Shown piece after piece: positions 5,911 to 47,860 of a stretch of DNA of 64,000 bases. Numbering within the stretch: the stretch's first letter is position 1; each line of letters starts with the position of its first letter. The position numbers and the translations under genes are program-made. Source of the DNA: Vicugna vicugna (lineage: Eukaryota); contig MU057503.1 of assembly GCA_013265495.1 (NCBI GenBank), positions 62,001 through 126,000 on the forward strand, given 5' to 3'. Below the pieces are notes generated by a model. It made no database searches, was not told where the DNA came from, and saw only the letters and a list, made by a program, of their open reading frames with translations.

Positions 5911-5972
5911 ATTCCCTTCCTTCTCCCAGTAAGAGTGGTACTAGATCTGAGGCTGTGAGCCAAGAGCCTTTT

Positions 5973-5974
<2 letters not shown>

Positions 5975-6018
<44 letters not shown>

Positions 6019-6069
6019 AACTCGAGAAGAAAAAGGAGTTTTACAAAAAAAAAAAAAAAAAAAAAAAAA
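5975..6069 (+). repeat. Two poly(A) tracts (A42 at 5975-6016, A25 at 6045-6069)
   Basis: Directly visible homopolymers. Confidence 0.95.
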
Positions 6070-6846
6070 GCCAGTTGTGGGGGTTTTTTTCCCCAAATGA
6101 TTGAAGCAAAACCACATTCTTAGCAAAATCTGACTCATATGAAGTTGGACTTCATATCAAGCAAAATGCCAGTTCTGAAGGACTGGATAGTTTAATAAAT
6201 TGCTTAGCAAGCCAGTGACAGGCATCACAAGATTGCCGTCAGATTTATGATTTGGAAACTCAACTACTCAACAAAAGTAAAAATCTCCTCATCACAAGGT
6301 TATAGAACCAGCAGAGTGTTACTCCTACAAGGTGAGAAAGATCTGGAAAATTCATTACAGATATAAAGCCAAGGGTTGTTGGAAAATGAAAATAAACATT
6401 AGAAAGAAAAAAACATAATGAAAAATAGATTTTATATATCATGGTAAAACAACCAAATTAAATGAGAAAATAAGCTTTCCTTTTAGAAAGAAAATTTAGA
6501 GGCTGATTTACCACCTCTGAGTTATTCCACTTGGGATGTCATCAGCTCAATTAAGTCAGTAACCAAGCTTGCATTATGCAATAAAGTGAAAAATCATATG
6601 AAGCCCTATTAGAAAAGTATATCTTTTGACTGGTCAGTAGCTAGCCGAAGAATGATGACTTCCTCATTGCAGTGTGAACCATCTGATAAACAATGTAAAT
6701 CTCAGGAGAAATCATACATGTATAGTAGGAATGCCTGGCTCCTTCACCCTGATTGACTTTGTTCTGCACTCCCTGTGTCTCCGGAGGAGAACGCTCTTTT
6801 TCATGCCAGAGGCATCATGATGAATGCTGATGAGACAATATTCAAC

Positions 6847-8999: not shown

Positions 9000-9790
9000 A
9001 ACTCTTTCTTGGAGCACATACCTAATCTAGTCAGAAGAATCCCAACCCCTTCCTACCATCTCTACTGCAAACACCCTGGTATAAGTTACCGTCATCTCCA
9101 TACGATTATTGTAATAGCCTCTCCTAGCCTCCCAGTTCCCATCCTTGACCCCACACATTCTGTTCTCAACACAGCAGCCAAAGTGGTTCTTTCAAAGCAC
9201 AAGCTACATTAGAGCATCACTCCTCTGCTCAAATCCTGCAGTGTGTCCACAACATACTCTGAACAAAAACAGCAAGCCTTACAAAAGCCTGACGGAGTCC
9301 AACTCCATCAGGCACCCTCCTTGCCCCTCTGATACCACATTAGATTTTTGAAATCTCTCCCGAGGTAATCTAGGTAAAAATGGCCTCCTTGATGTATCTC
9401 TTGATTTTTATACCCACTTCTTCCCTCTGCCGGAAATGATCTTTCCCTAGAGTCCCCATCAAGACTCCCACACATCTTGCAAGACTTTGTCTCAAAGGCC
9501 AGCTCCTCTGAGAAGTCTTTCTGGCCACACTATTTGAAACTGCATACCAACTTCAACCTTGACATTCCTTACTCTCCTACCCTTCTTTATTTTTCCGCAC
9601 AGCACCTATTATCACTTGACATACCATTAATATTACCTGTTCACTTATGTTCTGTTTTCTGCCCCCTAAAGAGTGTAAGTTTCACCAGAACAGGAACTTT
9701 TGCCTGTTTACTACTGCAGCTCCAATTGCTAGAACAATGCCAGCCACTTAGTAGGTGGACAATCAACATCTGATGAATGGATGAATAAGT
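9000..9790 (-). mobile_element. L2a LINE 3' portion
   Basis: L2 3' region motifs ending in tgaatggatgaata tail. Confidence 0.8.
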
Positions 9791-11157
9791 GGTCACTGGC
9801 ACTTCCAGTCTCAGGTGACAGGCCAAAAGAAGGCACTGAATTGTGCAGTCTTCTAGAACCTACAAGGATGATGGCTGCTGTGATGGAGGGTTGCCGTGCT
9901 ACACTCCGCTGCACGCCAATTAAATGCAGGCTTTGAGTGTGTACGCAGAGCTCAGCAAAGTTTGGCTTCCCCTGGTACAACCAAATGTCTGCTTCACATC
10001 TCTTTTCAGTTCAGTGCACCATTTAAGACATCTAAAACAATGGAAACAGAAACGTTCGTTTTAATTTAAAATAACCTTTTTCAGAAGAGGTGCGAGCTTT
10101 CCATCTTAAACAGGCTTGCCAACTGAATCCTTAATTCAATAAAGAGTGCCACAGGAATTAATAGATTTCATGCCACCCAAAGACCGGCAATAGGGTAAAA
10201 ACATAATTTCTGTCCTTGCCCATGGAGTAACTAGATACATAAAAGAAATCAGAATTGTAAAATTTTACGAAATCATTAGATGTGTTTAAATTGTGGGGAT
10301 GTGGGAAGGGGGATTTCAATGCCTTAATACCTTTAATACCAACCTAGACAGAGGTCTTGTCCATCACTTGTTAAAAGGTAGGCTTGGGGAAAATAGAATA
10401 AATACAAATAAGTAAGCCAATGTGTTTTAATACTCCTGAGGACACTAATAGTCAGCAAGATGGTCATTATTATAATTACCTGGTGCTGTCACAGCCAATG
10501 CATCCAACTCTGTAAAATGACTGCTCTTTACTAAATTACTGAGTGTTGTAAAATTCTCATCCATTTTGTAGGATTCATTTCCCCTATTTAGAGATTGTAA
10601 TTTACAAAGAAGTGGGATAAACTGGAACACACCACCCCAGAGAATTCTACCCTATAAGCAGTTCTTACTGGAAAAGGAAAATACAAAATTTCATGGTAGA
10701 CTATGAAGATTATGCCTACTATTTTATAGTTTACTTATTGATATAAAGTTAAACAACACATCAAATAATTCGTTAGTATGTCTTCAACTGGTTGGGGATA
10801 GGAAGGATATGTTAGCCAATGTCTACACCAGAGAAACATTTTCTCCAGCTAGCAGGCTGTGTGACCAATGACACCCATCTTAAAAATATGCACTGCTTGG
10901 AACCATAAAACGTGATAAAAAGATTAAGGAGCCAACACTTTAGAGGGGAACTTTCTTACTGTTTAAAAAGTCATAACACATCAGAGCTGCCAAGGATCTG
11001 GCCCAATTTCCCCACTGAATAGACAAGACTGTTGAGGTTTGGATTTGCGAAGTGACTTCCCCAGGGTCACCCAGTGGAGCCAGGACTAAGATAAAGTCTT
11101 CCAACCTCCAATCCAATCATCTTTTTACTATATTGTCGGTACTCGATACATACTAGG

Positions 11158-11302
11158 TTTTTTTTAACTTTTTTATAAAATTGGGGGGGGGGTACATATT
11201 CAGGCTTTTGGTTTTTTTTTTTTTTTAAACAGAGGTACTGGGAATTGAACCCAGGACCTTGTGCATGCTAAGCACACACTCCACTGCTAAGCGATACTCT
11301 CC
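11158..11302 (-). mobile_element. tRNA-derived camelid SINE (Vic-1-like)
   Basis: Reverse complement has a tRNA-like head with B box (ggttcaattcc), body homologous to 26390-26508, and A-rich tail. Confidence 0.88.
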
Positions 11303-11579
11303 TCACCAGTTTCCCTTTCTTTTAAGCAGCAGGAGGAAAGACAGAAAGGACACTGTCATTTATTATTGTTTATTTGTATTTTTTAATATAAAGACTTTAG
11401 AAAAGACAGTACCAGAGTGGCAGTGGGTATTTCATTTCCCCAGAGCATAGGAGCTCTTGGGTGAATGCGTTTTATGAAGAGATTTGTCCTGGGAACTTGG
11501 CAGATTTTACTGCAAATATTTTAGCAGTTTCCTATTATTTAGCTGTGAGTTTAACTTTTTCAGTCCTAGCCTCCCCCAG

Positions 11580-12030
11580 ACTGATGTCAGCAGATTAGAA
11601 GCAGTTTTATGAGGAAGTGCCTGCAACAGGGATGATGGCTTTCTTCATTAGAGAATGTCCTGGTAGACATTCCAAGAAGGCCTTCCTCCTGCCCAGTAGG
11701 AAAGAACGTCTTTGGCTATCAGCTCCTCCAGCTTCCCATCAGCTGCAGAAAACTATCGCGCCAGAGCTCAGGCCCTCTGCTACCACCCAAAACTTGTGTG
11801 CAAGCGAGGTGAGAGGACAAACCCAGACAGCGGGGCCAATGCAGGGCCACTCTGAGGGATGATAATTGCTCCAGAGCTCTTTGCCGGCGGACCTACATCA
11901 CAATTCAACCTCTCCCTCCACTCAATACTGCTTCTTCCTCCTTCCCTTCAGAGATGTTGATCTCAGATAAATATCCTGCGCCCCAAGCTCTGTCCAAATG
12001 TCTGCTTCCACTCAGTTCAACCTACGACAA
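11580..12030 (+). mobile_element. ERVL solo LTR (LTR16-like)
   Basis: LTR16-type 3' half (ttgctccagagctc...caatactgcttc...gatgttgatc...aaatatcctgc...tctgcttcc...aacctacgaca). Confidence 0.65.
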
Positions 12031-12329
12031 ATGTCTACTTCACTTCTCAGGGTGACACCCTAACTGCGAGCTGCCAGCCACCCCGGGCTGGCACCCAGTT
12101 CAGGCTCTCACCAACATCCCCAGTCCTGACTGCGTACTAGTATTGTCAGAAGTGTGTTATTTTCTGTAGAGACAGGGAAATTTGAGAGACTAGCTGATTA
12201 AAGCACCGCTCACATCAGATCAAAAGGCTAGCACATGGGGCTGAGTGAAAACAGCTTGGACTGGAGAGAGGACAGATGGGTCCCTGGCAAACTGGAGACC
12301 AGGGAAGGACCCTCCATTCATGTTTTTCC

Positions 12330-12510
12330 AGCGTGGCTTTCCCAGCCTGCGCTGTGCTGGGAGCTTTAGATACGCGGTCCCTTTAAATCCTCACAACCAC
12401 CCTCTGCTCTGAGGTAGGTTTTATCAACCTTGTTTTACAGTTTTGCAGACTCAAAGAGGCTAAATAAATCCTTCAAGGTCACCAAAGTGGTCACAGATGC
12501 CTGAAATTCC
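12330..12510. mobile_element. MIR SINE
   Basis: MIR core (aatcctcacaaccacc...gaggtaggtttt...ttttacag...caaggtcac). Confidence 0.65.
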
Positions 12511-12666
12511 TGTAACAATACACAAAGTTCTTCATCCCACACACAGAAGGTAGGTTTAAGCCCTGAAGCATCTCTGGAGACGGAAAATTCAGAGACTGAT
12601 GACTGGATTTTGGGGCCTGCATGTTCCGTGTCGCCTGCCGGGAACATTACAGGTATGAGGGCTTAC

Positions 12667-12996
12667 CTCGGCCAGTGAAGACGCTTCTCGCTGAAGTGGT
12701 TCAAGGCTGTTGGTGCCAGCCTGGAAGGTTCCGGATCCTGGTGCTGTTGGATGGGTTCCATCGAGACTCAAATTTCAGAAGCTTTACCTGAAATCTTCCA
12801 CATCTGCTCCCCGCCTGGAGGATAAACCTCCGACCGGGTACTCACAGCATTCAAACCAGGAGCCCTGCCTGGCTATTTCACTGCTATTTCAACACCTAAG
12901 TTTTACTGCATGTTGTAGTTGAACAGTTCTGTCTTTTTCAGGGAGTAATTTTTCGATTTAGCTTTGTATCATTATCTGCTTTTTTAATTTTTTAAA
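12667..12996 (-). other. Candidate alternative first or cassette 5' exon; upstream boundary uncertain
   Basis: Strong minus-strand donor CCGAG|GTAAGC at 12667/12666 in unique sequence with locally retained CpGs (12560-12840); possible acceptor ttattatttag at 12997-12998. Confidence 0.42.
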
Positions 12997-14109
12997 CTAA
13001 ATAATAACAGATAATGTAAGCAAAGAAATTGAGAGGAGAGCCATGCCCCAAACAGGGGAATCCGAATGTTTATTTCCTACAGTTAGTTCTGCCTGGGCCT
13101 CTCCTATATCCCTAAGGGGGCCTCCTAGGCAAGCCTCAATAAACACCCCACCCAGTCAACTAGGAAGGGTTGACAGAGCCACACCGACCACTGATCCTGG
13201 TAATTTAGGAGACTCTTAAGCTAAATTTTCCTATGGAAATGCACTGAAACTGGCCTCACACTAAATTATCATTGTTTCTGTTGTTTTCAACCACTTACTG
13301 GGTGCCTACAAACACCAGATTACATGGCACCCTCATCTCTCAATGAAGAAGGCATTTTAATCTCCGTGTGTGCTTGCCACTGGTAGGGAACAGAGGCTCA
13401 TCATGGTTAAGTGACTTGTCATTTTATGGGCTTGTGATCTTAGGGAAGCAATTTAACCTATCTGAGCCAGTTCTGAAATGTATAAAATGGGAAAAACTTC
13501 TGGAGCCTGTGCAGTACCCATGCCCCTTGCACTCTGCCTGGCCCACACTAGACCCTCAATTAGCATTTGTTGAATAAATGAAATTCACAAAATCTAAATG
13601 GGATGAGAAGTAGAAATCCTGTATGAACTCACTAGGACATTCTGTGGCAAACGGTGGCTCAGTCATCTTCATCCAGAGTTATACACTGGTAAGCACCAAG
13701 CCAGGAATTCCAATTTTGTCTCCCTGTCTCCAAATGCCAAAATTCCCTTCACTATTCCATATCATGTTTCTGATCACAGCAATGTTATGTTTCCAGACTA
13801 ATCTGGAGACTAAAGACATACCAGAGCAAAAATTCAGTGTCTCCCAAGCATGACTGCTTAATACCTATCAGAGAAGCTGAGAAGTAGAAGAAAATTCTAC
13901 CCAAGTCAGATCTTTCAATCGAATTCCTCAACAATCCTTAAACAAAGTTCCCTATGACATTTATTAGAAGGATTAGCAGTCTATAATTTGTAGAATCCCC
14001 ATTAAATTTAGGTAGATTTCCAAAAGAATTCAATTACACAGCTCCATCTTTTGTCAAGGCAGAATGTGTGAGATTATTTTTATTAGATGGTTAAGATTTA
14101 TTGAATTGT

Positions 14110-14330
14110 AACTATTTTCCAGGCAATGTTTTAACCACTTCATGTGGATTAACATCTTTAACCCTATGACAACCCTATTGTCTAAGTACTACTAATGTCC
14201 TTATTTTCCAGTGGAGAAGTGATATATACAGAGGTCAAGGAACATGCTCGAAGTTATACTGTGACTAAGGGCTTAGCTGAGATTTAAATGCAGGCATTCC
14301 AGTGTTAGAGACCACTGTGCTATGTAATCC
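14110..14330. mobile_element. MIR SINE
   Basis: MIR core and 3' motifs. Confidence 0.65.
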
Positions 14331-16152
14331 CTCTCTATCTGCCTTTCCCAACTCTTTTGCTTTCAAAGAAACTTAAGAAGTAGCTATGTGTAAAATTGTG
14401 CCTAACAAGTTTTTTCAACACTGTGATGACTGTACCATGTTAGGTTACCTCCCATCCGCCTGTGACATAACCCCAGAGTCTTCCAAAACTAAAAGCCTTC
14501 TTTATCTCCCTGAAAATACTAAGCACCTTTTGCATCTTCCTTACACAATTGCCATTTGAATAGGGCCGCTCTCTAATTGCATTTGCAAATTCACTTAGGA
14601 AAGAAACAGGTACTGTTAAAGGCACACCCGACATTCTTTAAAGCCAAGTGATCAGTATGCAGAGCTTAGACCTTGGAACTAATCATAAACAGAAATTTTT
14701 CCACCTGCTGAACTTCTCAAAGAATCTGACCAGCTCAAAGATTATCTGACTGGAAACTTTTCTTTCATCTGTAAAATCTGCCCAGGATAACATCTCCAGA
14801 GCCACCACGCTGCACAACCCCAGCACGTAGCATTCGTGTTATCTACCTGAAGGGAGCTGCCTGGATGGATGCAGGGCACACCCTGAGCAGCCGTGGGCAG
14901 CTGCCCAGACCCATCTACTGGCAATGTCATAGCGATTTTCTCTGCCTGCCCCACAATCTTACTCCCCAAGTCTCTTCTTGATGGTATCCATTTCTTGGAG
15001 ACCCTTAGCCAAATTATCCGTTAAAATTTTAAGCTCCCTTATGTTTACCATGTAATCAATAGTTTTTTTTTTCTTTCCTGTAGAAAACAAATGTAACTAG
15101 CAAGTTATGATTGCTGTTTCTTGTTAAGATGTGTGTGTCATTCTCTAGATGATATAGTTCAATACAGAGAGAATGAGCCAAATTCCTGTAAGAAGCATCT
15201 CTGCCCCAAATTATGCCAGCTTCATGTTTAACATTGCAACTACAAAGCAGAAAGAGGCCTGCCTCTGGAACCACCTCAACAGAGGCACGTGATCAGTCTT
15301 AGGTGTCATTCCTGCCAATCACCTCTGTTCAGGAAAGCTCAACAAAGAGGAAAGATCACCACAGCCCTATGAAGGAACGGCCTGTATCCCTCTCTACTAC
15401 CAAAAAAAAAAAAAAAAAAAGTCAAGATCTGGCTGTAGAAAAGAAATTATGGAAAAGAACCCACAACGAGAGTTGATGCCCATGTGGTACTGTATAAACA
15501 TTCTAAAATACTGTTTTAGATACAGAACAAAGAAGCAGAGGAGTAACCTCCTCCTGATTTACGTATCTGGGTATTCTTGATCTGTTTGTCTTAATTTAAA
15601 ATATACATTAAGATTAGTCCAAAAGGAGACACACTTAATATCTGTCATCCTGTAAGGCAATGTCCCAGACCTCCAGCTATATCCAGTGCCATGGAATCTT
15701 ATCACCATGGGGCTGACAGCTTCTCCATTAAGCCTCTGCTCCCTCAGCACGGACTGGACAAGGAAGCCTGTGTTCTCGTTTCATGAGAAAGTGGTCTGAT
15801 AGTTTTGCCTCAGCCAGATGGACTTGACCTTGATTGATGTCCAACCTGGAAGTGTTAGTAAAATCATCAACTACAAATGCAAGTTTATTTAGAAGCCTCT
15901 TCTCAGTGGGGTGTAAGCATAAAATGATTTTTTCTTTCTCTCCAAAACATCCTCCCTTTTCCAGGGGAGCAGAGCATTTAAGCGTCTTGGCAGGCTCTAT
16001 AACTTCTTAATCAACTTTTGTTTTTAACATTTTGTCCAAGTCTCATTTCCAACCTCCTATCAGATGCAAAGCATTCCCTTCTCATCACTGTTCAGGCTGT
16101 GGTAGAAAGTATGTGAAGGGAGTGGAAGAAAATACACTCTCAACAGAGTGAA

Positions 16153-16270
16153 AATATATTTTTATATATATATATATAAATATATATAATATATATTTTT
16201 ATTTTTAATATTTTTAATATTTATTTTTATTTTATATATATATATAAATATATATTAAAATATATATATA
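16153..16270. repeat. AT-only (TA)n-rich low-complexity tract
   Basis: ~118 nt containing only A and T. Confidence 0.95.
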
Positions 16271-18035
16271 TGCCCAAAGCCCTTTTTGTGGGGTTGCCCC
16301 TCATACCCTACAGAAGGCCACTTAAGTTCAGCTACGTTTTGGTACCCACGTGACCGATGAGAAATTCCCGCTTCCTTCCTCGCCACGCCAAGTGGTGGGA
16401 ATGAAGGCTACGCCTCCTCTGCCTCCTTTCTCACTCCAGTTCTCCTTGTCTCTGCTGAAATAAGCCCAGGGATGTATCAGGTCTTGGCCAAATCTAACAC
16501 CTACCCTGGAGTGACAGTTTCCCCTTCTTGCAGGCACTCTGAGTTTCTAAGAGGAGTTCTCTCAGGTCCCCCTGATTTCACCTGGAGAAGCTGAAACACT
16601 TCCCTTCTGCTTAGCATCATTCTCCCACCATCACAGCACCGCACTCCTAGGGGCTGCCCTCCATGTGCCTGCAAAGCTCCTCCTTCTCTCATACCATCTT
16701 CCTTTATAGACTGGAACTGGGACCAGCGGGCTGGGATAACTGACTAGAGATAGCAAGGCTTCTGCCTCTTAGTCCTCAGCCAAGTGTGTGGCTCCCAATT
16801 ATGGTGGCTGTCTTAAGAATAGAGGTTTAATCTTTCTGTCCCTAGCTTTGAGATCTAGTCTCTACATCTCAGGCAGTAGGGAAAAAAAATGCAGCTGAAC
16901 ATCCTGCTACATGTAGAAACAGGATCCAAGGCTTGAGGAGGCAAAGGGCTGCCTTTTCCATGATCTCTGGGATAAAGTTGGTAAGGACTAAAAATCTCTA
17001 GGATGTGACAAGATTAAAAAAAATCAAATATAGACTCTGACCTAATAATCCTTTTGGGGGTGGTTTTAAAACTGTTTATACAGAGCCTGAGATCTAAAGA
17101 GTGATTTCCTCTGGCTAAAGAAGGGGGCCTTTATTAAAATAGGACCACCAAGCAGTGCAGAGACAAGGGGGTTTTGTCACACTGATCTCGATTAACATTA
17201 AGAGAGCCTTTTCTTAGTTACCTGATGTAGCCAATTAGAAATCACTCCTCCTAGTGCCAGTATGATTCCTTCCCCGATGAAAGATCAAATATGTTGTGAC
17301 ATAAATGCTGAGCTCCTCTTGTTGAGGTGTTTATGGATTTTTTTTAAACATCTAGCCTGACAAATCTTTTAAAATTTATATTTTCTATGACCCCATTACC
17401 GGACACTATAATCTTAGGGTGACTTGCTCCTGTCTGGTCCATGCCTAACTGGTGCACTTCAGCTGAGTGGGCACAACCCAGCCTGATACTGAGCTAAGCC
17501 TTAGCACAGACTTCACAGTATTCCTTAATATATCATATGCTTTTGGTTCCAAGACAAAAACACTCATGAACCTGCTCTGTGTTCTTGATGTAAATCCCAG
17601 TAATATTCCCTCAGGTTCCTTACTGTAGTCTCTTAAGAATCAGCATGGATAGAAATTGGCTCTTGAGACTTAAAATTCAGGTCCTATAAATGGCGAAGAA
17701 CAAGGGAGAAGACATAGCTCTTTTAGGCAATTTTGTAAACCCTTTAGAAAGAGGTTTTAAAACCAGGTTCTACAGATCCCTGTCATTCCAGAGGTTATGG
17801 CAGCAGCCTTTTTATTGGTGGGAAATTCAGAAGTGTGGCTCTCTCCCCCTTCTCCCTCCCCTGACACACCGTCGACCAGAGTAGATCAGATTTCATCAGC
17901 TGTGCATGTTAGGCTTAGTATTTTATATGTGGAAGATGGTTTTGTTGCAAAAATATTAACACTTTCTATATGAATTTCTCTAGATGTACTGAATAAATAC
18001 CCTCTCGCCTTATCAAATAAGAATAAAAGTTGTCT

Positions 18036-18348
18036 CTATGATCAAAAATACAACATGTAACAAATGTTGGTCAGGACGTGGAGAAAAGGGAACCCTCGTA
18101 CACTGTTGGTGGGAATGTAAAGTGATGCAGCTCCTGTGGAGGGGTGGAGTGTGGAGGTTTCTCAATAAACTAAAAATAGAACTGCTATATGACCCAGCAG
18201 TTCCACTCCTGGGTATAAATCCAAAAAAACCAAAAACACTAATTTAAAAAGATACATGCACCCCAGTGTTCACAGCAGCATTATTTACAATTGCCAAGCT
18301 ATGAAAGCAACTTAAGTGTCCATCAACAGATTGGATAAAGAAGATGTG

Positions 18349-18385
<37 letters not shown>

Positions 18386-18843
18386 GGAATACTATTCAGC
18401 CATAAAAATGAATGAAATAATGCCATTGCAGCACCATGGATGGACTTGGAGGGCATTATGCTAAGTGAAGTAAGTCAAAAAAAAGACAAATACTGTATAC
18501 TATCACTTAGATGTGGAATCTAAAAACACAAAAAAACACTGACTATAACAAAAAAGAAGAAGACTCGTAGATATAGAGAACAAACTAGTGGTTACCAGTG
18601 GAGAAAGGGAAGGGGGTAGGGGAAGTATAGTGAGAGGGGGCTAAGAGGTACAAACTATTATGTATAAAATAAATAAGCTACAAAGACTTATTATACAACA
18701 TGAGGAATAGTAGCCAATGTTTTGTAATAACTATAAATGGAGTATAACCTTTAAAAATTGTGAATCACTACATTGTACATCTGTAACATATAATATTGTC
18801 CATCAACTGTACTTCAATAAAAAATTTTAATAAATTTTTACAA
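18036..18843 (+). mobile_element. 5'-truncated L1 (ORF2 C-terminal end plus 3' UTR) with internal (CA)n at 18351-18382
   Basis: Translation [11 protein letters not shown]...[19 protein letters not shown] is L1 ORF2 C-terminus; TSD aagaataaaagttgtct (18019-18035) / aagaataaaagctgcct (18844-18860). Confidence 0.95.
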
Positions 18844-21800
18844 AAGAATAAAAGCTGCCTGAAGGAGCAACTGAACTTTTTTACCAATTACTATCATAAA
18901 AAACAATGTGTTAATAACTATGCCAAAATGCAGTCACCACTTATGTGATTCATTCTTTAGTATTCATCTCTACCAAATAACTTCCTTCACCTCTTACTCA
19001 GCTGTAGAAATGCCTTCACAGAACTATACTTTAGTATTATGTCTTGGTTTTTATCAGGGTCTAATTTCAGGAAACTCAATATGACTAACATTTCTTCCTT
19101 GTCCCTTATGTAACAATACATGCCATGACCTCCTCTTTAGAGCTGAGGGCTGGAAAAATCTTCTATGTTTCCTTTTTAAGATATCAAGGAAGTTGTAATT
19201 TAGATTTGCCTTCAGCTACCAATAAACTAGAAGTTAAATCTCATGCTTAAAGGCACAGGGTCAGGGAGGAGGACCTATATTCAAGATGCTGCGTTTTCTG
19301 ACCCAGTTACCAATTATCACCCAGCTCTCCATTAATTCCACCAACATTAATTGAGTACTAAGGTGCCAAGTACTGTGGGAGACACCAAGGGAACAAAGGT
19401 TATTAAAACATGATACTCTCCCTAAAAGAGATCTTGGTTGAATGGCTCTTGTTCTTTCATTTTTGTGAACTTTCTGTATATATCTACCTTTATTTGTAAC
19501 CTATCTGACACTTGTTTTCAATAACAGATATATTACAGGTAAACAAATGAGTTGATTAAGCATGTTCTGAAAGAGAAGGCATTGATTTAAATTTACGTAG
19601 AGGGGTAGATAAGTTATATCATGTTCTTTTCTCTTAGCCTCCTGAATCATCTCACAGATTGAGCTTCTCTTCCAATCCATCCTACAATCTGATTAATTTT
19701 CCTAACAGGCCTTTTCTGATCACATCACTCATCTACTCAAAAGTATTAACTGTCACACCACACACTTGCCCTCAAAATAAAATCAACAACACAGAAGCAA
19801 GTCAGAGACAGTCTTAGTGCAAAGAACATGGAACCTACCTAAATGCTTCACCCCTCATACGTGCTTATGAACTGACAGGACGGGGTGACCCATTCCTAGA
19901 CTAAAACAGGCATATCCAAATGCTGAAACTCTTATCACTTAAAAAAAATGGTTACAATAGATACATGTGTACTTTCGCCTAACATTCAGCTAATTTTTCA
20001 TCCATTTGGGATCTTATAACCACCATGCATGTTATTTACTTTATTTCCCAGTTCTGAGATACATTCATATCACCACCACCATCAAAGGGGGAGGGGAGAC
20101 TGATTTTGCAGTTTCTCATCTAGCTTCAAATGTGCCCAAAATGTGACTCCTGGAGTCAGAGGGACTCTAAGAGATCCCTTGAGAGGCAGACTGGCCCTTC
20201 CTTTAGGCAAGAAAAACATTCTTTTTATCCTTTACAAATTCAACAACTTTAGCACATCAAGGTTCAAGGTCACCCAGCCAGTCAGCACCTATCTTGCTGG
20301 CTTCCGCTTCCTGCCATGGTGCCTTTGTGAAGCATGACGCCATGAGGCAGTACTGAAAGCAGTCCACGGTGACTGTCCACTGTCCATCTGTGCAGTCCTC
20401 TTGCAAATTAGTCCTTAGTTGAAAGTCTCCACAGAGAAAGATGATGTTCCTGGATTTTGTTACTTGCAGAGAAGCCTAAGACAACGTAATCTCTACACAA
20501 AGAAAGGTCTCTATTTTAAACACAGGAGATTGCCCAGAATGACAATATATATGGCCCATCTGTAATATCTGATGCGTGTATAGTTATTTAGAGTCATATA
20601 GAAAAGACTTGATACTTTACGATAAGATTTTAGTAGCAATTTCATAACGCAGTTATGTATTATCACTGAGAAGAAAATCTTTCAGCCAGTTTACCCTGAT
20701 TTCAACTGTAATTTTTCCACTTTTCTAGCCAGAAAAAGTGTTAGGAAGCTAATTTCCTTCTCTTCCAGATTTGTGTATCTGGTACATAGAATAGAAATCT
20801 TAATTTCTACACACTCTTGAGCCCGACCAGGCTTCTAGGTCATACATCAGAATAGATTCTATTATTTAGAGAAGCATATTTATGTGGTTAGGAATACTAA
20901 CAAGACTCAAGAAATAAATTCTTCGGTTATGTTTCATTTAGTTATCAGATACAGTTACCCAGTGAACTAGAGAAACAAAATGATGTTAGCCTTTAGATGT
21001 TTCTGGATCTAGGGAGGGATGAGAGTCACAATGCAAGGCTGTAGTGCAAAATATTTTCAATAAAGCAGACATTTCTGATTTAGCACTTTCCTCTGAAACA
21101 GCAGGCCTATCGGTCAAATACACAGCAGACTGATGTTGCTTTGGAAAATGTGCAAACACCTTATGCTGCAATCGGCTGTATCTGGAGGGGGAAAAAGATG
21201 ACGTCTGGAAGGTTTTTCCTGCCACACTCATTAGACAGCATTTTTTAATTACATTCACATTCTCAGATTACTTATTTGTATGCACAGTGAACAATGCAGA
21301 GAAAAAAACTGAAGTGGGTATGATTTGCTGCAAACTACTAGGGAAAATGGGAACTTAACATCAATTCCTTACACAGATAAAGCAGCTGAGGAGGATGAAG
21401 ACATCCAGGAAGATGAGGCACCAGGACACTCCTCAAACTCAGGAATTCACTCTTGACCAAAAGGGTAACACTAAAATGTGACCAAACATTCACTATTTAG
21501 AGATATTACTTATTTGTTGATTGCCTGTGGCATAAAGAGGTCTCAGATTCTCTGGAAACTTGGAACCCAAAATTGTCTCATCTGGATCTGAAGGATAGAT
21601 AAGAACATTCTGATAGTGTTCTCCTCTGCATAGTAATTCCTCTCCTGCTTAAAGATCTGTGTTATGCTATTCTGCAGTTCAGGGTCGCTCTCCCACAGAA
21701 GTGAGGCATCGCGCTCTGATGGGGGCAGTGAATAATTTTCAGCTATTTGTACACAGCTGCAGCTACTTGCATGGGTAATTGCTTTTGCCCAAATCACCAG

Positions 21801-22599
21801 CATAATTGTGGCTCTAAAGACATAGATTTGAAAGCCACTGAAGTGTCAAATTATATTACAACAATAGAGCCAGTTCTCCAGAAAATATTCATGTTTTAAT
21901 TTCAATCAAACTTCAAGAATGTGTTGAACCCTTGCTCTAGGGCCCAAAACAAAAGCCACAACGTTGTGACATGTCAATGTCTAGCATAACAAACAGGAGG
22001 GATGCTAGCTGCATATATGACAGTAAGACTCCACGAATAATTCTAGTACCACCTCCTCGCCCAGTACGTGGCATTCAATAATTTTGTTCTTAATGAATGA
22101 ATGCAACTTTTAATTTCTACAGTTCAAATTAGAAATTTGGGATCTCAAGGTAGAAGGACCAGCTATGGTTCTTCTGAGAGGTGGTTGCTGTTCAAAGCAG
22201 AGTGATGACTACAACAAAACTGGATTTATCTGCTACCTCTAGCATACATTTGGCACACTGACCCCCTTGACCTATCACATCACATTATTGTATCAGCTGA
22301 AGAGGAGCATTGGTCCCTGCTCTGGAAAATATTCCAATCTCATTAGACAAGATTTCTGAGAAGAACAGTAACAGGAACATAAAATCAAAATGCTAAATCA
22401 GTTTGTGATACAAACAAAGCAATGTAGTAGGGGAGAAGAGAATATAAGCTACAGAGTATAAAGACTTATGTTCGAGTCCCAAGGACTGCCATTTATGTGC
22501 TCTTGGTCAAATCACTGGAACTCCACCGTGAGAATACTAATACTATATTTTCATTAGTAGTAATAGATTGCCTGTGGATGAACAACTGTGGGGTTGTTG

Positions 22600-22980
22600 T
22601 TATACGACTTACGTCCAGGAGTATAGAGTTCTCGGAGTTGGTTTGGTGATTTAAGGATGCCCAAGTCATGGTCACTTAGAGTTCTCTTGGCCTTTCCCTC
22701 TGGTCCTAAGAAACCTGTGACAGCTCTAACGACTGTGATAACAAGGAGCAAGGGGAACAAGAGGGGGCAGAGGCTTTACTGGAAGAGAAAAAGCTCTTCA
22801 GATCCGAGAAAGACTTGTTCACAGTTCACTGGCCACAACTGAGTCATATACCACTGGTAGCAAGGGAGGTTAGGAAATGCAGGTTTTTGAAACTGGACAC
22901 ATCTCCAGTCCAGTCAAAATTGCAGTTATGTTAGTAAAGAACGGAGAATGGAATGAATAGGTAACTGGCAATGTCTGCCT
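22600..22980 (-). mobile_element. Old MaLR LTR (MLT1J/K-like)
   Basis: cactggccacaactgagtcatat...gcaagggagg.taggaaatgcag...ggcaatgtctgcc motifs. Confidence 0.6.
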
Positions 22981-23061
22981 TAATATTCTTTACAAAGTTA
23001 GCATTATATGAAACAACAGATTTCAAAGTGTTTTGTCAACCATAATGCTAAACAAAGTTGA

Positions 23062-23489
23062 TTTTTTTTATTGAGGGACAGTTGATGTACAAGATTATAT
23101 AAGTCTCAGGTGTACAATACAGTGATTCACTATTTTTAAAGGTTCTATCCCATTTATAGTTATAAAATATTCCCTCTGTTGTACAGCATATCCTTGTAGC
23201 TTATTTATTTTATACCCAGTAGTTTATATCTCTTAATCCTGTACCCTTATCTTGTCCTCTCTCCCTTCCCTCTCCCCACTGGTAACCACTAGTTTGTTCT
23301 CTGTATCTGTGAGTCTGTCTTCTTTTTGTTATATTCACTAGTTTGTTTTTTTTTTAGATCCCACATCCTAGTGATATATTTGTCTGCCTCTATCTGACTT
23401 ATTTTAATTAGCATAATATCTTCCAAGTCTAACCATGTTGTTGCAAATGGCAAAATTTTCATTCTTTTTTATGACCGAGTAGTATTCCA
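23062..23489 (-). mobile_element. 5'-truncated L1 3' UTR
   Basis: Reverse-complement homology to 18400-18830; TSD aaagttga (23054-23061 / 23490-23497). Confidence 0.92.
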
Positions 23490-24329
23490 AAAGTTGAATT
23501 TTTTTCCCTTTAAAGTAGAATAAATATACTATTTTCATGTACATACAGTATCATAGAAAAAGACCTTAAGATAAAACATACTAGATTTTAACTAATATAT
23601 AAGCATATTACCTAATATGTAGTATATTAGGTCACACTTGAAGCAAATAAGAGAAATGAATTTCTTTTCCTTTTGTATTTGAGATAATGTAAGTTAAAAA
23701 TGTATGAGATTCAGTTCTGGTCTATCATACTGAGGTAAAGTATAGAAATTTTTCACTTTTTGCTTTATTTTCTTATGTAAACACACTTTACCTTTGATGA
23801 TTCAGGTTTTTGTCTAAAACTGGGGTATATATGCTTTTATTTCATTTACATGTGATAAAATTTAATAGTAATTATGTGGTTTGTGAATTAAAATGCCTTG
23901 AAACACTATATGCTCCTTAAAAAAATAAAAGCAACTATAAAAGAGGAACTATAAAAAAATTTAAGCACAAAATGCAAAATAATTTATCTTTAGTATCCAC
24001 GGATATATAAGACATATTTTTTCTTTCAAGAAGTCAGAATTTTTTCATATCCTAGAAAATGGTTTGGGAAAAGGATGATTTTCTTTAAGAAGTCAATGCA
24101 GGAAAGAAGAAATTAGGAAAATATTCTGTCTCAGTGACAATTTAATTACAGTGCCCTGTGAAGAAGCAGTTGGCACAATTAGCTGATTTTTATTGAATAT
24201 CAGAGCAGAGATAGAGATTAAAATGCAATTTGAACACATATGAAGTTAAAGTAGTGAGTGACATTAAGGAGCAGATGTTTAGAAAGCTTCAGAAATCACC
24301 TTGCCTGCACTTACATCTGACAGTGGCCA

Positions 24330-24770
24330 ATAAGACCTCTGCAATCAGCTTGCCTCCCTCATTACGCCTCGAACTCCCTAAGGCTCACCAGTTCTCTACC
24401 ACCTCAGGGCTTCTGCACTTACTGTCCCCTCCCCATTTTTCCATATGGCTGTTTTCTTCGCATCATCCCAGTGCTGACTTAAATGTCACCTCCATAGAGA
24501 TGCCTTCTCTGAACATCCTGACTAAATAGCTGACCTCCTCCGGCTCTTCCCACCCTGAAAGAGTCCTTCACCATCATCTTGTTTTTATTTCATAGCATTT
24601 ACAATAATTTGACATATTTGACTTGATTTGTTTATGCTATCCCTCCCCACTAGACTATAAGCTCCACAAAAGCAGGTATACCTTCTGTCTTATTTATAGC
24701 TCTATCTCCAGTACCTAGAACAGGGTTCATCACAAAGTAAGTGCTCCACAAATATTTGTTGAGTGGAGAA
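24330..24770 (-). mobile_element. L2a LINE 3' end
   Basis: aaatgtcacctcc..agagatgccttc...ctagactataagctcc...aaatatttgttga. Confidence 0.8.
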
Positions 24771-26389
24771 AAAAGATATGTGTGGTCTATAAACCATGAA
24801 TTTATATAACCATATTTGGAAAGGACTAAGCTGCTGCCTATAGGTGTACTTGGTAGAGAGTTTCTTAAATCACAAGTGTTATTTTCATATAATAGTTCAT
24901 TAAAACATATTATCTGGGTGTAATTCTACTAAGGGAAGGATTCTAAATACCTCAAGAAAACAGCTGAAGAGCTGACCCAGACATTCTCCTGATGAGCTCT
25001 TCACAATTTATTAGCATGTAAGAACATATTTTTCCAGGCACTGCCTACTCTCCAAGGGAACAGAGTAGTCTCAGATCTATAAAGCTAAATTCCTCAGACT
25101 AAGGACTCTGAAATTGCTATGTCCCCCTGAACCTACATCTTGCATCATAGATCTAGGTCTCTGTTCTTCAGATTTCTTTCCTACCCAACCCAGTTTAAGA
25201 TATACTTGTGAAAATGTAACTGATCTCATTTTGGATGTTTCTTTTTTTTTCACAGCTATTCTCTCACCTTTAGTTTCCAAGACAGGACAGTAAAGGTAAG
25301 ATATCCAGTTAAAAGCGAAACACAACATTAACCTCCTTATTTGTCTTCATCACTTCCAGTACAAATGAAAAGGCAACGGCACTGGAAGATAGGAAGCATC
25401 CAACTCCCTCCTCAACTCATTTAAAGCAAAAAAAAGGAAACGTTTGTCTTTCACTGAAATATTGCAGTTTAGAAGTAAAAGGTAATAACTTCACATATCA
25501 TTCAGGTATGACAACTGAATTCTTAATCCAATGTGGAGTTCTAAAAAAATTATTTGAGTTCAGGCTGACAAAAGACTTGTTACAGAAGAAACATAATTTC
25601 TTCCTGTCCCATGGTGTAACTTGACATAGCACTGAAGAACTCTTCTGTTTCTGTAAATGCATTAGATGTGGCTAAAAGACAGTTTTTAAAGGCTCAAGTT
25701 GCTTCCTTAAAGTATTGACTCACCCAGTGCTATCGTCAATCACTTGCCAAAAGGTGGGTTCAGGGAGAATAAAACAGAAACAAATAACTAAACAAAGGAT
25801 TTTAATAATCCTGAAGAAACTAACATTCAATGTAATGGCCATTAATAAAAATATTCATGCTATCATAACCAGCAGAACTGCCACCATAAACTGAGTAGAC
25901 TATGGTGAATTACTGAGCATCATAAAATTCTTAAGTATCTTGTAGGATGCATTTCCGCCATTTAGGAATTATAACTCAGGAAGAAATATACTGAAAAGAA
26001 CAGCCTGCTCCTTTGAGTGTCAGAACTCCAAGTTGTTTTAATAGAAAGCCACAATAAATATTTTTTATGGCAGGATCTGAATAATAGCCTTGCATTCTCT
26101 ATCAGAGCCCAACTTCTGAACTAAGCTCAGTGCAAACAAAAGAAGGTAGTAGAGGAAGATAATGTTTGATGCTCTTATCTTCCCCCATGATATGCCTATT
26201 CCTACACCCTTGGATGCCCCCTCCCTGGAGCTCCTGTCTTCAAGCATCTCCTCTCACCTCTGTACCCTTACCCAATACATTCAGGTTAAGCAGTAAGTAC
26301 TGAACATATTTTGTACTTCCAGAATCCCAATCAGATCCCATGTTTTTAGAGCTCAGAGGGCAAAGAGGTTGGTATTAAGAATATACCTG

Positions 26390-26508
26390 GGGGATAGGGT
26401 ATAGCTCAGTGGTAGAGGACATGCTTAACGTACATGAGGTCCTGGGTTCAATCCCCAGTACCTCCATTAAATAAGTAAACAAATCTAATTACCACCCCCC
26501 CCAAAAAA
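26390..26508 (+). mobile_element. Full-length tRNA-derived camelid SINE (Vic-1-like)
   Basis: A box tagctcagtggt (~26402), B box ggttcaatccc (~26445), A-tail; TSD aagaatatacctg (26377-26389) / aagaatatatctg (26509-26521). Confidence 0.93.
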
Positions 26509-35004: not shown

Positions 35005-36915
35005 TTTGACTTATAACATTGTATTAGTTTAGGTGTACACAGAATGATTTGATTCATGTATATACTGCGAAATGATCTCCATGGTAAGTTTAGTTAATAT
35101 TCATCATCTCACATAGTTACAAACTTTTTCTTGCAATGAGAATATTTAAGATTTACTCTATTAGCAGCTTTCAACTATACAATACAATCACCATGCTGTA
35201 CATTATATCCCCAAAACTTATTTATCTTATAACTAGAAGTTCATGTCTTTTGACCCCCTTCACCCACTTCCAGCCCTGACCCCTTGCTTCTGATCACCCA
35301 TCTATTTCGTTTGGGTTATTTTTTTTTCTTTTAATCCCAAATATAACTGAAATCATACAGTGTTTGTCTTTCTCTGTCTGACTTACTTCACTTAGCATAA
35401 TGCCTCAAGGTCCATCCATATGGTCACAAATGGCAAGATTTCATTCTTTTTTATGGCTGAATAATATTCCATTGTATAAATATACTACATTTTTATTATC
35501 AATTTATCTATCATTGGACACTTAGGTTGTTTCAATGTTTTGGCTATTATAAATAATTATGCAATGAATATGGGGATGCAGGTGTCTCCTTGAGATAGTA
35601 ACTTCAGCTTCTTTGGATATATACCCAGAAATGGAATTCCTGGATCATATGATAGTTCTATCCTTAATTTTGGGGGGGACCTCCATACTGTTTTCCATAG
35701 TGGCTGTACCAATTTACATTCCCATCAACAGTGCACAAAGGTTCTCTTTTCTCTACATCCTTACCAGCGCTTGTTATTTTTCTTTCTTTAACAATAGCCA
35801 TTCTGACAATGTAAGGTAGTATCTCACTGAGGTTTTGATTTGCACTTCCCTAACAGTTAGTGATGCTGAGTACCTTTTCATGTACCTGTTGGCCATTTAC
35901 ATGTCTTCTTTAGAAAAATGTCTATTCAGTTCTCCACTCATTTTTTAATTGGATTGATCTTTTGCAACTGAACTGTAGGAGTTCTTCTGTACATATATGT
36001 ACACACGTAAATACATATGTTTTATATACATATTTACATGTATATATTTATATATATGCATTTATACATATATTTATATACATATACACATTTATATAAT
36101 GTCTTATATACAGCATATAATGTCATATATACTATAATGCAATGATGAAAGAAATTGAGGAAGACTCAAATGGAAAAGATATTCTACACTCATGGATTGA
36201 AAGAACAATATTGTTAAAATGACCATACTACCCAAACCAGTCTCTGGAATTAATACAATCTGTATCAAAATTCCAATGGCATTTTTCACAGAAATAGAAC
36301 TCATAATCCTAAAATTTGTGTGGAACCACAGTAGACCCAAATAGCCAAAGCAGTACTGAGGAAGAAGATCGAAGCTGGAGTCATCAGGCTTCCTAATTTC
36401 AAACTGTATTAAAAGCTACAGTAATAAAAACAGTGTGGCACTTGCATAAAAACACACATAGATCAATGGAATAGAACAGAAAGCCCAGAAATAAACCCAT
36501 ACATATATATGTCAATTAATTTATGACAAAGGAGCCAAGAAAATACAACGGAGAAAGGATAGTCTCTTGAATAAATGGTATTGGGAAAAACAGGACAACC
36601 AGATGCAAAAGAATGAAACTGGATCCCTATCTTACACCACCTACAAAATCAACTAAAAATGAATTAAAGACCTAAACATAAGACCTGAAACCACAGAACT
36701 CCTAGAAGAGGACATAGTAGATAAGCTCCTTGACTTCACTCTTGGCAATGATTTTTTTGGATTTGACACCAAAAGCAAAGACAAAAAAAGCAACAATAAA
36801 ACTAGTAGGACTCTATCAAATTAAAAAGCTTCTGTTTAGCTTTTTTGAAAAAATAAAAAGGCAACTTATAGGATGGAAGAAAACATTTGCAAAGGTGTTA
36901 ATATCCAAAATACAT
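35005..36915 (-). mobile_element. 5'-inverted (twin-primed) L1: antisense 3' part 35005-35985, TA/CA-rich junction, sense ORF2 part 36140-36915
   Basis: Left part is reverse-complement L1 3' UTR and ORF2 end; right part is plus-strand ORF2 DNA ending where the left part begins in L1 order. Confidence 0.88.
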
Positions 36916-39595
36916 TAACAAAAATTTTAAGTCATTATCTTTTAGAGAAATACTGAAATATTTTCACAAGAAATGACAGCTATCTCAGACCTTCCAATCT
37001 AGGGGTAGAAGGGCGGATGGGGGTACAGATGAAATACAACTGGCCATAAATTTGTTTTTGTGGAAGTTGAGTAATTTGGCCAATACCATACACCTAGTAA
37101 GCAACAGAACTCTTATCTTAGTTGTCGGATTCCAAAGTCTGTGACCTATTTAATACACTGAGATATCTCTCAAATGCACCACACAGACACCTGCACACAA
37201 CTATTTGTAAACTGATGACTACCTGTATTACTTAGCTTTGCAGGGTTTTCTGTGCCTTAAATATGCAGTCAGTAAGAGTTTCATAAGTGTGTATGTATTG
37301 AGGCCAACTAGGAGAGTGGTAAATTACTTAGAAAACTGTACAAGAAATAGATACTTTCAACTAAGTAACAAGTCTCTTTAAATAAGTGTTTTCATTAATA
37401 CATTTTATTCATAACTGCTAGTACTTGTATCATAGAAATAAGCTTGAAGTGTATGACAGAAACGAGTTTACAATATAAGCACAAATTTAAAAATTAAATT
37501 CAGATTCTAAGACAATTCCTATATTGTATGGTTCTCCAAGTTCTTTACAAGCAGCATAATCACTGAGCCAGTGATTTATGAAAGCCAGAAAAAAAAAATT
37601 GCAGTCCAGAGGACCCTAGGGCAAGACTTAATAATACCCTTGAATAATACCCTAAAATAACTGACATCCCTTTTTTAAATGCCAAACAAAGGAAACTATA
37701 TGTCAGAGTCCAGTGTTATCATCATCATAATTATAAGTAAAGTCCTTTTAAAATCAGGTAAACCAGATATTAAGTCATTAGCATCACATTGGGTAAGTAC
37801 TTTAGACAATCTCTTGGAGGAAAGAAATCTCCCAGTGACAGAGGAGTGTAAAGATGCACCTTCTGAAATGTTGCCAAAACAGGAAAGAAATACTAGTTTT
37901 GTAAGTTGTCCAACTTGTACCTCAAGTCAGCCAGGCTCCTGAAATAGATAACTCTGCTTTTATGTTCTTCCATTCCCACATTTTCTCTACCAGAGTGACG
38001 TACTTATTACTTCTCTGTAGGATTTACTAGCTAGGGACCACCTAGAACTATAAACCCCCTGCAGTGTGGGCTTTATCAGACAGCAGACTACCTTGGCTCT
38101 CAGCCTATTACTATAGCTCTACCTGACAACATTTCGTATCCACAATTTTTAAAACTACGTTTATTCTTACTTTTACACTGAGGCTGCAGTAGCACTTCTT
38201 GATTGATCACTATTTGGAAACCAGGAAGTGGTTTGTAGCACTATGGTATTCACTTTGCTATGACCACAGTCTTAAGGTATCACATGGTGTCTCTGATTAT
38301 ATATTGTATTATTACTGTCATGAATTATTTTAGTATTAATCACTGTTATTATTGCTTTATTATTAATCATCCCTTTGCTAGTGATAACTGACTCACGCAG
38401 ATGATCTACAGTTTCTGAAGAGAATAGGGAGAACATAAGTAAGCAAATCCTCAATGCACACTTTTTGAGCTCCACTCTGCTGAAATTTTACATTACAGAA
38501 CAATTCCAAATTCTGAAACATAGGCCTTGAACTTTGATGGTGCTGAAAAAAAGTACGGCTGTGACTAGGACAAAGTTGGAACAATAGCAAGAAACTTCTG
38601 CTGCATTACATTCCCTTTATAATGAATCACTGGGAACAGGCACCCCACGAAAAAAAAAAAAAAAGAGAGAACCGCACAAGAAACTTTAAAGGACCTCTTT
38701 TCTTCCCTTTTGAGGCACTGCATGCTGTTAATACTGAGATCAACCAAGAATAAATACACAAATCAATTATAATACTAAGGAACTGGCCACAGGCCAACAC
38801 TTATCATTGTTAAAAATTCATGGAGAATTAGGAAGATTGTCAGAGTGTAACCATATTCTCTCATATATATATATATCTTTTTTAATGTAACTGGAAACCT
38901 ATCAAAGCAGGTCATCACAAAATCATTGTCAAAAAGAAAAATATAGATGATGTAGTAAAACCATTTTTTAAGAAAGAAGACATTTCAGACAGATTTAATA
39001 TCCTTAGTTGACAAAATTGTAAGTTCAGGAGATAGAAGACAAGAATGCTTTCCTTCCTCCCTCCTTCCCTTCTTTCCTTCCTTCATCCTCTGTAAACATT
39101 TATTAAGGGACAGCAACATGCCAGGAAATAGGCAAAGAACAGTCCCTGCCCTCAAGAATCACACAATCGAGTGACTAAGGCAAACACATAAATAATTTCA
39201 TCACAGCAAGGTGGATGCATTAATGGATGTAAATCATAGCTCTGTGAGGGATTAAAAGACTCAATAGCTGTATCTAGACAAAAGAGTCTTGAAAGGGTAA
39301 ATGATATATATTCATCAACATACCAAGAAGTATATCCAAAATCGTGTAACTACAACAGTTCAGCCAGAAAAATGATGCATTACAGGCACTAACCTTGGAT
39401 CCAGAGTGGTTTAAGTGTTTTTCCACAACCTTCACGATGGACCAGACAGCATTTGTAACACCGTAGACAACCATCGCCGAAGCTCTTTCAAGGCAAAGGT
39501 TGACTTCTCCCTCTTTTTACTGCATGTGATACTTAGTCAAAACACAAAGTAGGCGCTTAATATGTACTAATTGCACACTCAAAGCTAGGTGAACA

Positions 39596-47059: not shown

Positions 47060-47860
47060 CTGGGAGCATGTTAGTACAGATTCCCCAAGCCCTACTGCAG
47101 AACCTGCATTTTAGCAAACTCCCCACATGATTTGTGTGCAAACAGAAGTTTAAGAAGCAGTGATCTAAAGGAATAGGCTTTACAGAAACTACAGAGCCAT
47201 TCCAACTATTTGGCATAAACTTAAACTTCTGCATTTCCAGCACATCTCTCAAACTCTCCAAGGTATCACCAACTTCAAGGTGACTTCAGCATCAATTGCA
47301 CAATGAGTCAATAAGAAGAAAGAAAACTAAGTACAGGAGTGAGACTAAACAACTCATCATTATCATTCAGCTCCTCCAGCTGAGCCCTTTACTGTCAACC
47401 ACCCTGGCTCCAAATGCAATTAGGGTGGGAAGATTGTGGCCAGATTCAGCAGAAGGGCAGGCATATACTTATCTCCCTAGCTAGCGGTCTTCACATATTC
47501 CTCTGTTAACAATGACACACTCATGGCCTTTAACCTGCATATGGCCTGCAGATATGTCTGTTGGCCCACATAGTATTTCAAATGTGAATTCATTACTATC
47601 GTTTATAAATTTGAAACTTTCACATTAAAAAAATCTACACATCTAAGGTCTCGTCTACAAATCAGAAAATCTGACAAAATCAGACCCACAATCCAGCATG
47701 GCAACAAGTATAGCCAAGGCCCAGCTACCCCACATAGATGTTGGTCAGAATCTCCACCATTCCCTATGGTCTCCCCAGTACTGAAGCTGAGTGTCAGCTG
47801 CCACTTGTCATCTGCTATTTGGTCTGCTTCATTCATTCACATTCCCAACCTGACTCTTAA
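47060..47860. mobile_element. hAT-Charlie relics (MER5A-like 47060-47165; second element ~47480-47860)
   Basis: ctgcattttagcaaactccccacatgatt...aagtttaagaagcagtg is MER5A-like; second element assigned only loosely. Confidence 0.55.

Follow-up and report, generated by a model that had tools for sequence, protein, structure and literature searches.

The locus consists of two directly repeated sequences lying within a window of 64 kb (the whole stretch of DNA analysed). The core of copy A (10029-10611, plus strand) and that of copy B (25418-25985, plus strand) are in the same orientation at an offset of about 15.38 kb, and share 68.5% identity over 555 ungapped columns. This pair is a genuine homology, since its alignment score of 17251 is far above that of 300 dinucleotide shuffles (1299 ± 144, maximum 1795), which bears out the direct-repeat pair described in an earlier note. 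All five pairs of short anchors that the note had listed as shared by the two copies were also recovered, at the coordinates it gave. The cores are 570-580 bp long, and about 720 bp with a weak tail: a longer local alignment (10029-10728 versus 25418-26101) runs over 719 columns at 67.8% identity, gaps excluded, and the homology perhaps goes on to about 10750 in copy A and about 26130 in copy B (10750/26129; p 0.03 with one matrix and 0.17 with another). Upstream of the cores, a 41-column patch with 78% identity (9800-9840 versus 25351-25386, both on the plus strand) may be an uncertain remnant of the duplicated unit on either side, with p 0.036 in a post hoc window narrowed after viewing and 0.22 in a wider one. 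Two of the five anchors recur once elsewhere in the window, at 9611 and 1028.

No third copy was detected by local alignment on both strands of the 64-kb window, because the best unrelated 600-base window scored only 1964 against the pair on either strand; on this point the earlier observation holds within the window. In agreement with the same note, no poly(A) or other tail was seen on the copies, no target-site duplication (TSD) was found around them, their true ends being uncertain, and no terminal inverted repeat (TIR) emerged from six tests (p ≥ 0.08 in all), short arms of which may have decayed. The statement that indels are very few had to be revised: 12 events were counted in the core, a density resembling that of the L1 pairs of the window.

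The 3' end of an old repeat lies upstream of copy A (9488-9789, plus strand), and is 62% identical (K 0.55) to another one located in the spacer, upstream of copy B (24475-24775, plus strand). These two ends, which we take to be L2a, sit at a similar offset from their respective copies. Over the shared 3' part they are 64% identical to each other, versus 65% and 70% to a third piece at 41180-41365. A 15-kb tandem duplication including the upstream ends found no support, as they are no closer mutually than to this third piece, and the end at 9488-9789 is probably an independent insertion. No further collinear non-repeat block was found between the A and B regions, and no older repeat is visibly interrupted by either copy. 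Of nine spacer pieces, presumably MIR or L2, only one could be aligned with pieces beyond the spacer at a score well above that of shuffled sequence. None of the 368 frames of at least 52 codons in the spacer, all of which were searched, matched gag or pol (two sub-threshold Pfam matches), and the GC content is low, at 35%. A CpG island is found about 30 kb from copy B.

The two cores differ by 98 transitions and 77 transversions, corresponding to a K2P of 0.42 (bootstrap 0.35-0.49), to be compared with 0.23-0.48 for the L1 pairs and 0.55 for the L2 pair of the window. Identity is even along the alignment (window-variance p 0.37, longest-run p 0.23) and no conserved core was found by these two tests, leaving little support for the regulatory element considered in the earlier note. 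Mismatches are distributed as 38/25/24 among codon phases (p 0.12), with no third-position excess, and a single one of the 12 indels has a length that is a multiple of three; together with the lack of another collinear non-repeat block, these values leave the proposed relics of a lost tandem gene pair unsupported. The divergence thus looks neutral, with no clear sign of function. Judging from branch lengths, the duplication would be about 100-130 million years old.

The copies were also compared with protein and RNA collections. No transposon protein was found in any frame and no transposase homology in the decayed frames (Pfam and a representative library, of low power for such frames), and Pfam gave no reverse transcriptase or endonuclease match. 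PDB searches returned zero, three non-significant and zero matches, and the Atlas no usable one. Viral contigs yielded nothing, and the viral insertion suggested earlier gained no support from the Pfam, PDB or viral-contig searches, all of which are weak for DNA so decayed. Nothing matched in prokaryote genomes and plasmids, and motif scans of metagenome contigs, where host DNA is scarce, gave zero and two matches, the latter aligning no better than chance. Rfam reported no family at gathering score in either copy and none up to E 1 over copy B, and a two-sequence fold of A and B, run without control, was weak. Neither copy aligned to the L1 and L2 pieces of the window. Three matches from the representative library were discarded as artefacts, being internally repetitive (8-11 stretches) and failing to align to the window. 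Resemblances noted by eye, in translated frames, to an RTE-X zinc knuckle, a hAT dimerisation domain and taste and vomeronasal receptors were dropped for want of Pfam support. An exon at about 10482-10589 (minus strand) was also dropped, since copy B has no acceptor for it and relatives change frame. Half or more of the sampled words of copy A occurred in 14 of the 24 sequencing runs listed, and in RNA runs their fraction was 0.24-0.49 in three and 0.05-0.07 in three others, figures uninformative on splicing or conservation.

To look for relatives in other genomes, where they appear as spurious gene calls, a minus-strand frame of copy A was used as a handle (10448-10651, 68 codons); it is stop-free by chance, is not a gene, and matched nothing in Pfam, PDB or the Atlas. 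Of the 111 candidates scored in the profile search, nine clusters passed, giving eight sequence types once P0001 and P0002 were merged as a single type. All eight are nearer to copy A (56-81% amino-acid identity) than to copy B (36-48%), and they shift frame freely, within or beside the handle. Therefore copy A looks like a single orthologous non-coding locus across mammals, one that would predate their split, and a repeat family of hundreds of copies is unlikely. At an indel near 10479, the six sufficiently long relatives all read through like A, and B does not. P0007, entered for copy B, is a close relative (32 of 36 residues identical), and one 30-residue block of P0013 is equally close to B (60%) and to A. 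As the comparison shows, copy A has relatives elsewhere, putatively orthologues, and all of them postdate the A/B split. The eight relatives include no third sequence type, so that the low copy number, old age and unassigned status claimed by the earlier note fit these data, and an index-free search recovered no relatives in other frames. In simulations, a paralogue was 0.04-0.53 times as detectable as an orthologue; given this, the lack of a paralogue beside the seven new A-type clusters suggests that the copies of the repeat number no more than about twelve, an estimate that fails if the source had stops in the searched frame.

TG/CA pairs are the mark of CpG dinucleotides decayed in opposite directions. 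They were in excess here (9/68, versus 9/421 for other double transitions and 7/346 in LINE pairs, p 0.0002), and nine of them were reached in 4-11% of simulated host duplications versus 38-60% with an undepleted source, a likelihood ratio of about 2-12 in favour of the latter. This modest excess hints at a CpG-rich source, and fits freshly arrived DNA better than old host DNA. One unlikely candidate is fossil coding DNA, CpG-rich on arrival and copied once soon after; it could stem from a retrocopy, a non-retroviral viral insert or the gene of a very rare transposon. Between 10340 and 10547, eight of nine CpG-type sites share a codon phase (p 0.003, uncorrected for the post hoc choice of range), both decay products occur among relatives from outside the window at three of five tested sites, and one minus-strand frame has only two shared stops versus 3-6, which is unremarkable for the best of six. 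Base composition shows no periodicity (p 0.33-0.90), as in three of four L1 ORF2 control windows, and the Pfam, PDB, Atlas and representative-library searches stand against a coding fossil. The pair resembles the protein fossils of vertebrate genomes, decayed, possibly once coding and overlooked by standard searches, but differs from them in having neither a protein match nor extreme conservation (Frith 2022, PMC9004415). It is unlikely that an unclassified CpG-rich coding insert entered the placental ancestor shortly before the radiation, gave rise to one further copy close by and persists at orthologous sites of many mammals; if the source were such an undescribed foreign insert, the pair would be of greater import, since it would date an insertion.

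Most old dispersed mammalian repeats are transposons, and extinct eutherian DNA transposons include the hAT Charlie/Tip100 and TcMar Tigger groups. Two independent insertions of one extinct family, both now inert, are the main alternative, of somewhat low probability; their source could be the interior of a DNA transposon or a poorly recognisable segment of an L1, L4 or LTR element, brought into proximity by chance or by local hopping, for which DNA transposons are known (PMC2874221). A K2P within the range of the window's repeat pairs, the neutral pattern, the AT-richness and the hint of a CpG-undepleted source are all as in those extinct elements, from which the pair differs in that no TIR, TSD or transposase match was found, by the absence of a third type among relatives or of credible metagenome matches, and by an apparently small number of copies. 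A pair of paralogous regulatory elements is improbable; selection would have preserved them since an earlier, more extensive duplication, the neutral flanks of which have decayed. In the closest relative, which looks somewhat slow, 54 of 71 residues are conserved, a level that neutral simulations reached in 4% of runs when K was 0.20 and in none at 0.25, CpG may be retained in regulatory DNA, and both the offset of the upstream repeat ends and the CpG island would suit this explanation; but no conserved core was found, relatives were chosen for similarity, the remaining ones (62-70%) fit near-neutral rates, and the two upstream ends resemble the third piece at least as much as they resemble one another. 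Were both copies enhancers, a regulatory duplicate would have been kept over 100 million years. Finally, it is very improbable that the copies are the paired LTRs of a single old provirus or retrotransposon. Their length and direct orientation are LTR-like, and PMC3758187 describes a pair of similar age with 53% LTR divergence, an ERV-L provirus whose direct repeats also predate the placental radiation. Unlike in that provirus, the spacer is ordinary old DNA without retroviral genes, GC is low and no TSD was found; moreover, one repeat end within the spacer has diverged further (K 0.55) than the two copies have from each other (0.42).

Most probably the pair is an unexceptional relic, left either by an ancient local copying event or by a mobile element now extinct. 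We favour, with a probability of roughly 0.45, a single local duplication of non-coding DNA in an early placental mammal, now inert, a reading supported by the even, neutral-looking divergence, an apparently small number of copies, the failure to detect a TIR or TSD, shared orientation and short distance. Some 0.6-0.9 kb of single-copy or nearly single-copy DNA would have been copied in the germ line, about 100-130 million years ago, in the same orientation and some kilobases away, probably through capture of nearby DNA in break repair or through a replication template switch, the breakpoints having since decayed. A tandem duplication followed by a deletion leaving a remnant would look identical. 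Both copies would then have drifted about neutrally, with no function needed. Counting against this local duplication are the TG/CA excess, the P0013 block, and a position in the tail of proximal repair duplications for both size and distance. Neutral duplication or an old transposon pair would be of little import, merely adding a case to a process already known; the most that such a pair could offer is a marker for phylogeny or a repair-type duplication of unusual age and length. Like repair-mediated duplications, it comprises apparently two short copies on the same chromosome without poly(A) tail; unlike them, it is near or past the 619-bp maximum of proximal events, which "scarcely exceed" 5 kb apart, and is far older (PMC2671141). 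With copies offset by 15.38 kb and cores of 570-580 bp plus a tail to about 720, it thus falls outside their limits (donor within 5 kb, up to about 620 bp). In that survey, 824 of 1,136 repair-mediated duplications were less than 5 kb apart, and 53 were also present in non-primate mammals (Pace, Sen, Batzer, Feschotte 2009, PMC2671141).

Copy A (core 10029-10611, plus strand) and copy B (core 25418-25985, plus strand) form a real and old repeat pair. The five anchor pairs proposed in an earlier note were all found where it had placed them, and the pair scored 17251. None of 300 dinucleotide shuffles exceeded 1795, and the best unrelated window, with both strands considered, scored 1964. The full alignment spans 719 columns with 67.8% identity, and the firm core reaches 68.5% over 555 ungapped columns; extensions to about 10750 and 26129 and to an upstream patch of 41 columns were marginal (p 0.03-0.22). 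Sensitive self-comparisons of the window, one covering both strands and one the plus strand with query windows of at most 40 kb, agreed with the earlier note that there is no third copy and revealed no further collinear block except common repeats and simple sequence.

The divergence of the two copies looks neutral. Their K2P distance was 0.42 (bootstrap 0.35-0.49), or 0.37 without CpG-implicated columns, and falls between the L1 pairs (0.23-0.48) and the L2-like pair (0.55) of the window. Identity was evenly distributed along the pair, whether judged by window variance (p 0.37), by the best window (p 0.28) or by the longest run (p 0.23); mismatches by codon phase numbered 38, 25 and 24 (p 0.12), and one of 12 indels was divisible by three.

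Relatives were recovered among the short gene calls of assemblies in ENA and Logan; a fortuitous open frame of copy A (10448-10651, minus strand) served as the handle. Both candidates obtained with the single copy A frame were relatives, as were 9 of 111 obtained with a profile including the frame of copy B; merging P0001 and P0002 with their cluster mates as one type gave 8 types in all. Every type was closer to copy A (56-81%) than to copy B (36-48%) over shared columns, with the exception of one block of 30 residues in which P0013 matched copy B at 60%, equal to its match with copy A. An indel near 10479 was read through as in copy A, unlike copy B, by all six sufficiently long relatives, and the frame was changed relative to copy A in 4/8 types. 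The tree of 8 rows, from which two short relatives were excluded, placed copy B on a long branch and contained no starred fork. When the copy B frame served as query, one of four candidates was a close relative (32/36 residues identical). Judged from their sequences, the relatives closer to copy A would be its non-coding orthologues from several mammals, younger than the split of the two copies. Gene calls made spuriously on the host DNA of public assemblies (P0001-P0019) offer a usable way to reach mammalian orthologues of non-coding sequence.

Were the pair part of a family of hundreds of copies, gene calls equally distant from both copies should be more numerous than orthologues. No paralogue-type cluster appeared beside 7 new A-type clusters, suggesting no more than about a dozen copies, a bound that is void if the source had stops in the searched frame; copy B has stops there. 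In simulations of the word filter, a paralogue passed at 0.04-0.53 of the orthologue rate, the hits carrying 9-17 words and the simulated threshold possibly differing from the true one. An index-free profile search of other frames gave no relative and three matches, all repetitive artefacts; it missed the orthologues too and is therefore a weak test. The pair is probably a fossil of two copies only.

The simplest account would be one local copying event followed by drift, about 100-130 million years ago, to which we assign a probability of about 0.45. Nearby DNA may have been captured in break repair or by a template switch; alternatively, a tandem duplication may later have been trimmed by deletion. 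Divergence per copy is half of K, about 0.2, and with the mammalian branch lengths that we assume for dating, the event would coincide with the placental radiation or slightly precede it. In the sections of Pace et al. 2009 (PMC2671141) considered here, 824 repair-mediated duplications within 5 kb reach 619 bp in size, 58 same-chromosome pairs lie farther apart and 53 duplications are common to non-primates. The pair resembles these duplications as described there, but its copies lie farther apart than 5 kb, and since its breakpoints are also unreadable it was not filed among them.

The main rival, somewhat less likely than local copying, is that both copies belong to a transposon family now extinct. 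DNA transposons hop locally, according to the part of PMC2874221 considered, and TG in one copy faces CA in the other at 9/68 opportunities, against 9/421 for other double transitions and 7/346 in eight LINE pairs (p 0.0002 versus each). Simulated duplicated host DNA reached nine such sites in 4-11% of runs and an undepleted source in 38-60%. Among five sites checkable in relatives, both decay products occurred outside the window at three, and at one only the window's copy A deviates, indicating a late change there. Neither target-site duplications nor terminal inverted repeats were found, as the earlier note had claimed (all six cross-copy TIR tests p >= 0.08). Paired LTRs, of which old examples are treated in the consulted part of PMC3758187, are very improbable, although the copies are directly repeated. 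A duplicated coding fossil is unlikely: 8/9 CpG-type sites in 10340-10547, a range chosen afterwards, lie in one codon phase (p 0.003), but no base-composition periodicity was found in the pair, even its best frame contains 2 shared stops (3-6 in the others), and no protein match came from Pfam, PDB or Atlas, nor any from viral contigs, prokaryote genomes or plasmids. Protein fossils and a frameshift-aware detection method are described in the part of PMC9004415 considered. For the pair itself, the CpG-type sites give no more than a hint that the source was CpG-rich, perhaps once coding. Paired enhancers are slightly less likely still. The closest relative kept 54/71 residues, a selected value since relatives were chosen for similarity, and neutral simulations with K set to 0.16, 0.20 and 0.25 reached it in 30%, 4% and none of the cases, respectively. 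Copy A may be under mild constraint; there is no sign of present function in either copy. Rfam searches of the copies found nothing, and up to half of the sampled words of copy A were present in RNA runs (intronic pre-mRNA or exon).

The window consists of non-coding mammalian DNA of an ordinary kind, with GC mostly 33-45% and CpG depletion outside an island at 55-57 kb. A Pfam scan of all 368 stop-to-stop frames of at least 52 codons gave 2 weak matches, both under curated cut-offs. The island (55000-57000; GC 0.57-0.60, CpG o/e 0.61-0.84) has a strong splice donor on the minus strand near 55520, and is probably a non-coding first exon; the copies would then sit inside a long 5' intron or past its end. 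An exon-like stretch at 39390-39545 (minus), which contains several CpG and has an end resembling a donor, had no match in Pfam or PDB. Open frames of 169 (47574-48083) and 133 codons (61514-61912), without a Pfam match, are probably old repeat remnants. L1-like pieces of the window align to one another, and at 35299-36900 oppositely oriented fragments, presumably L1-like, abut at an AT microsatellite and may represent an inverted L1 insertion. At 5950-6070, two long poly(A) runs flank a short spacer with an XhoI-type site; they are either what is left of a tail or an artefact of the assembly. Two tRNA-derived SINEs with Rfam tRNA matches (11208-11311 and 26385-26500) are, we assume from their appearance, camelid, and the latter is flanked by a short duplication.
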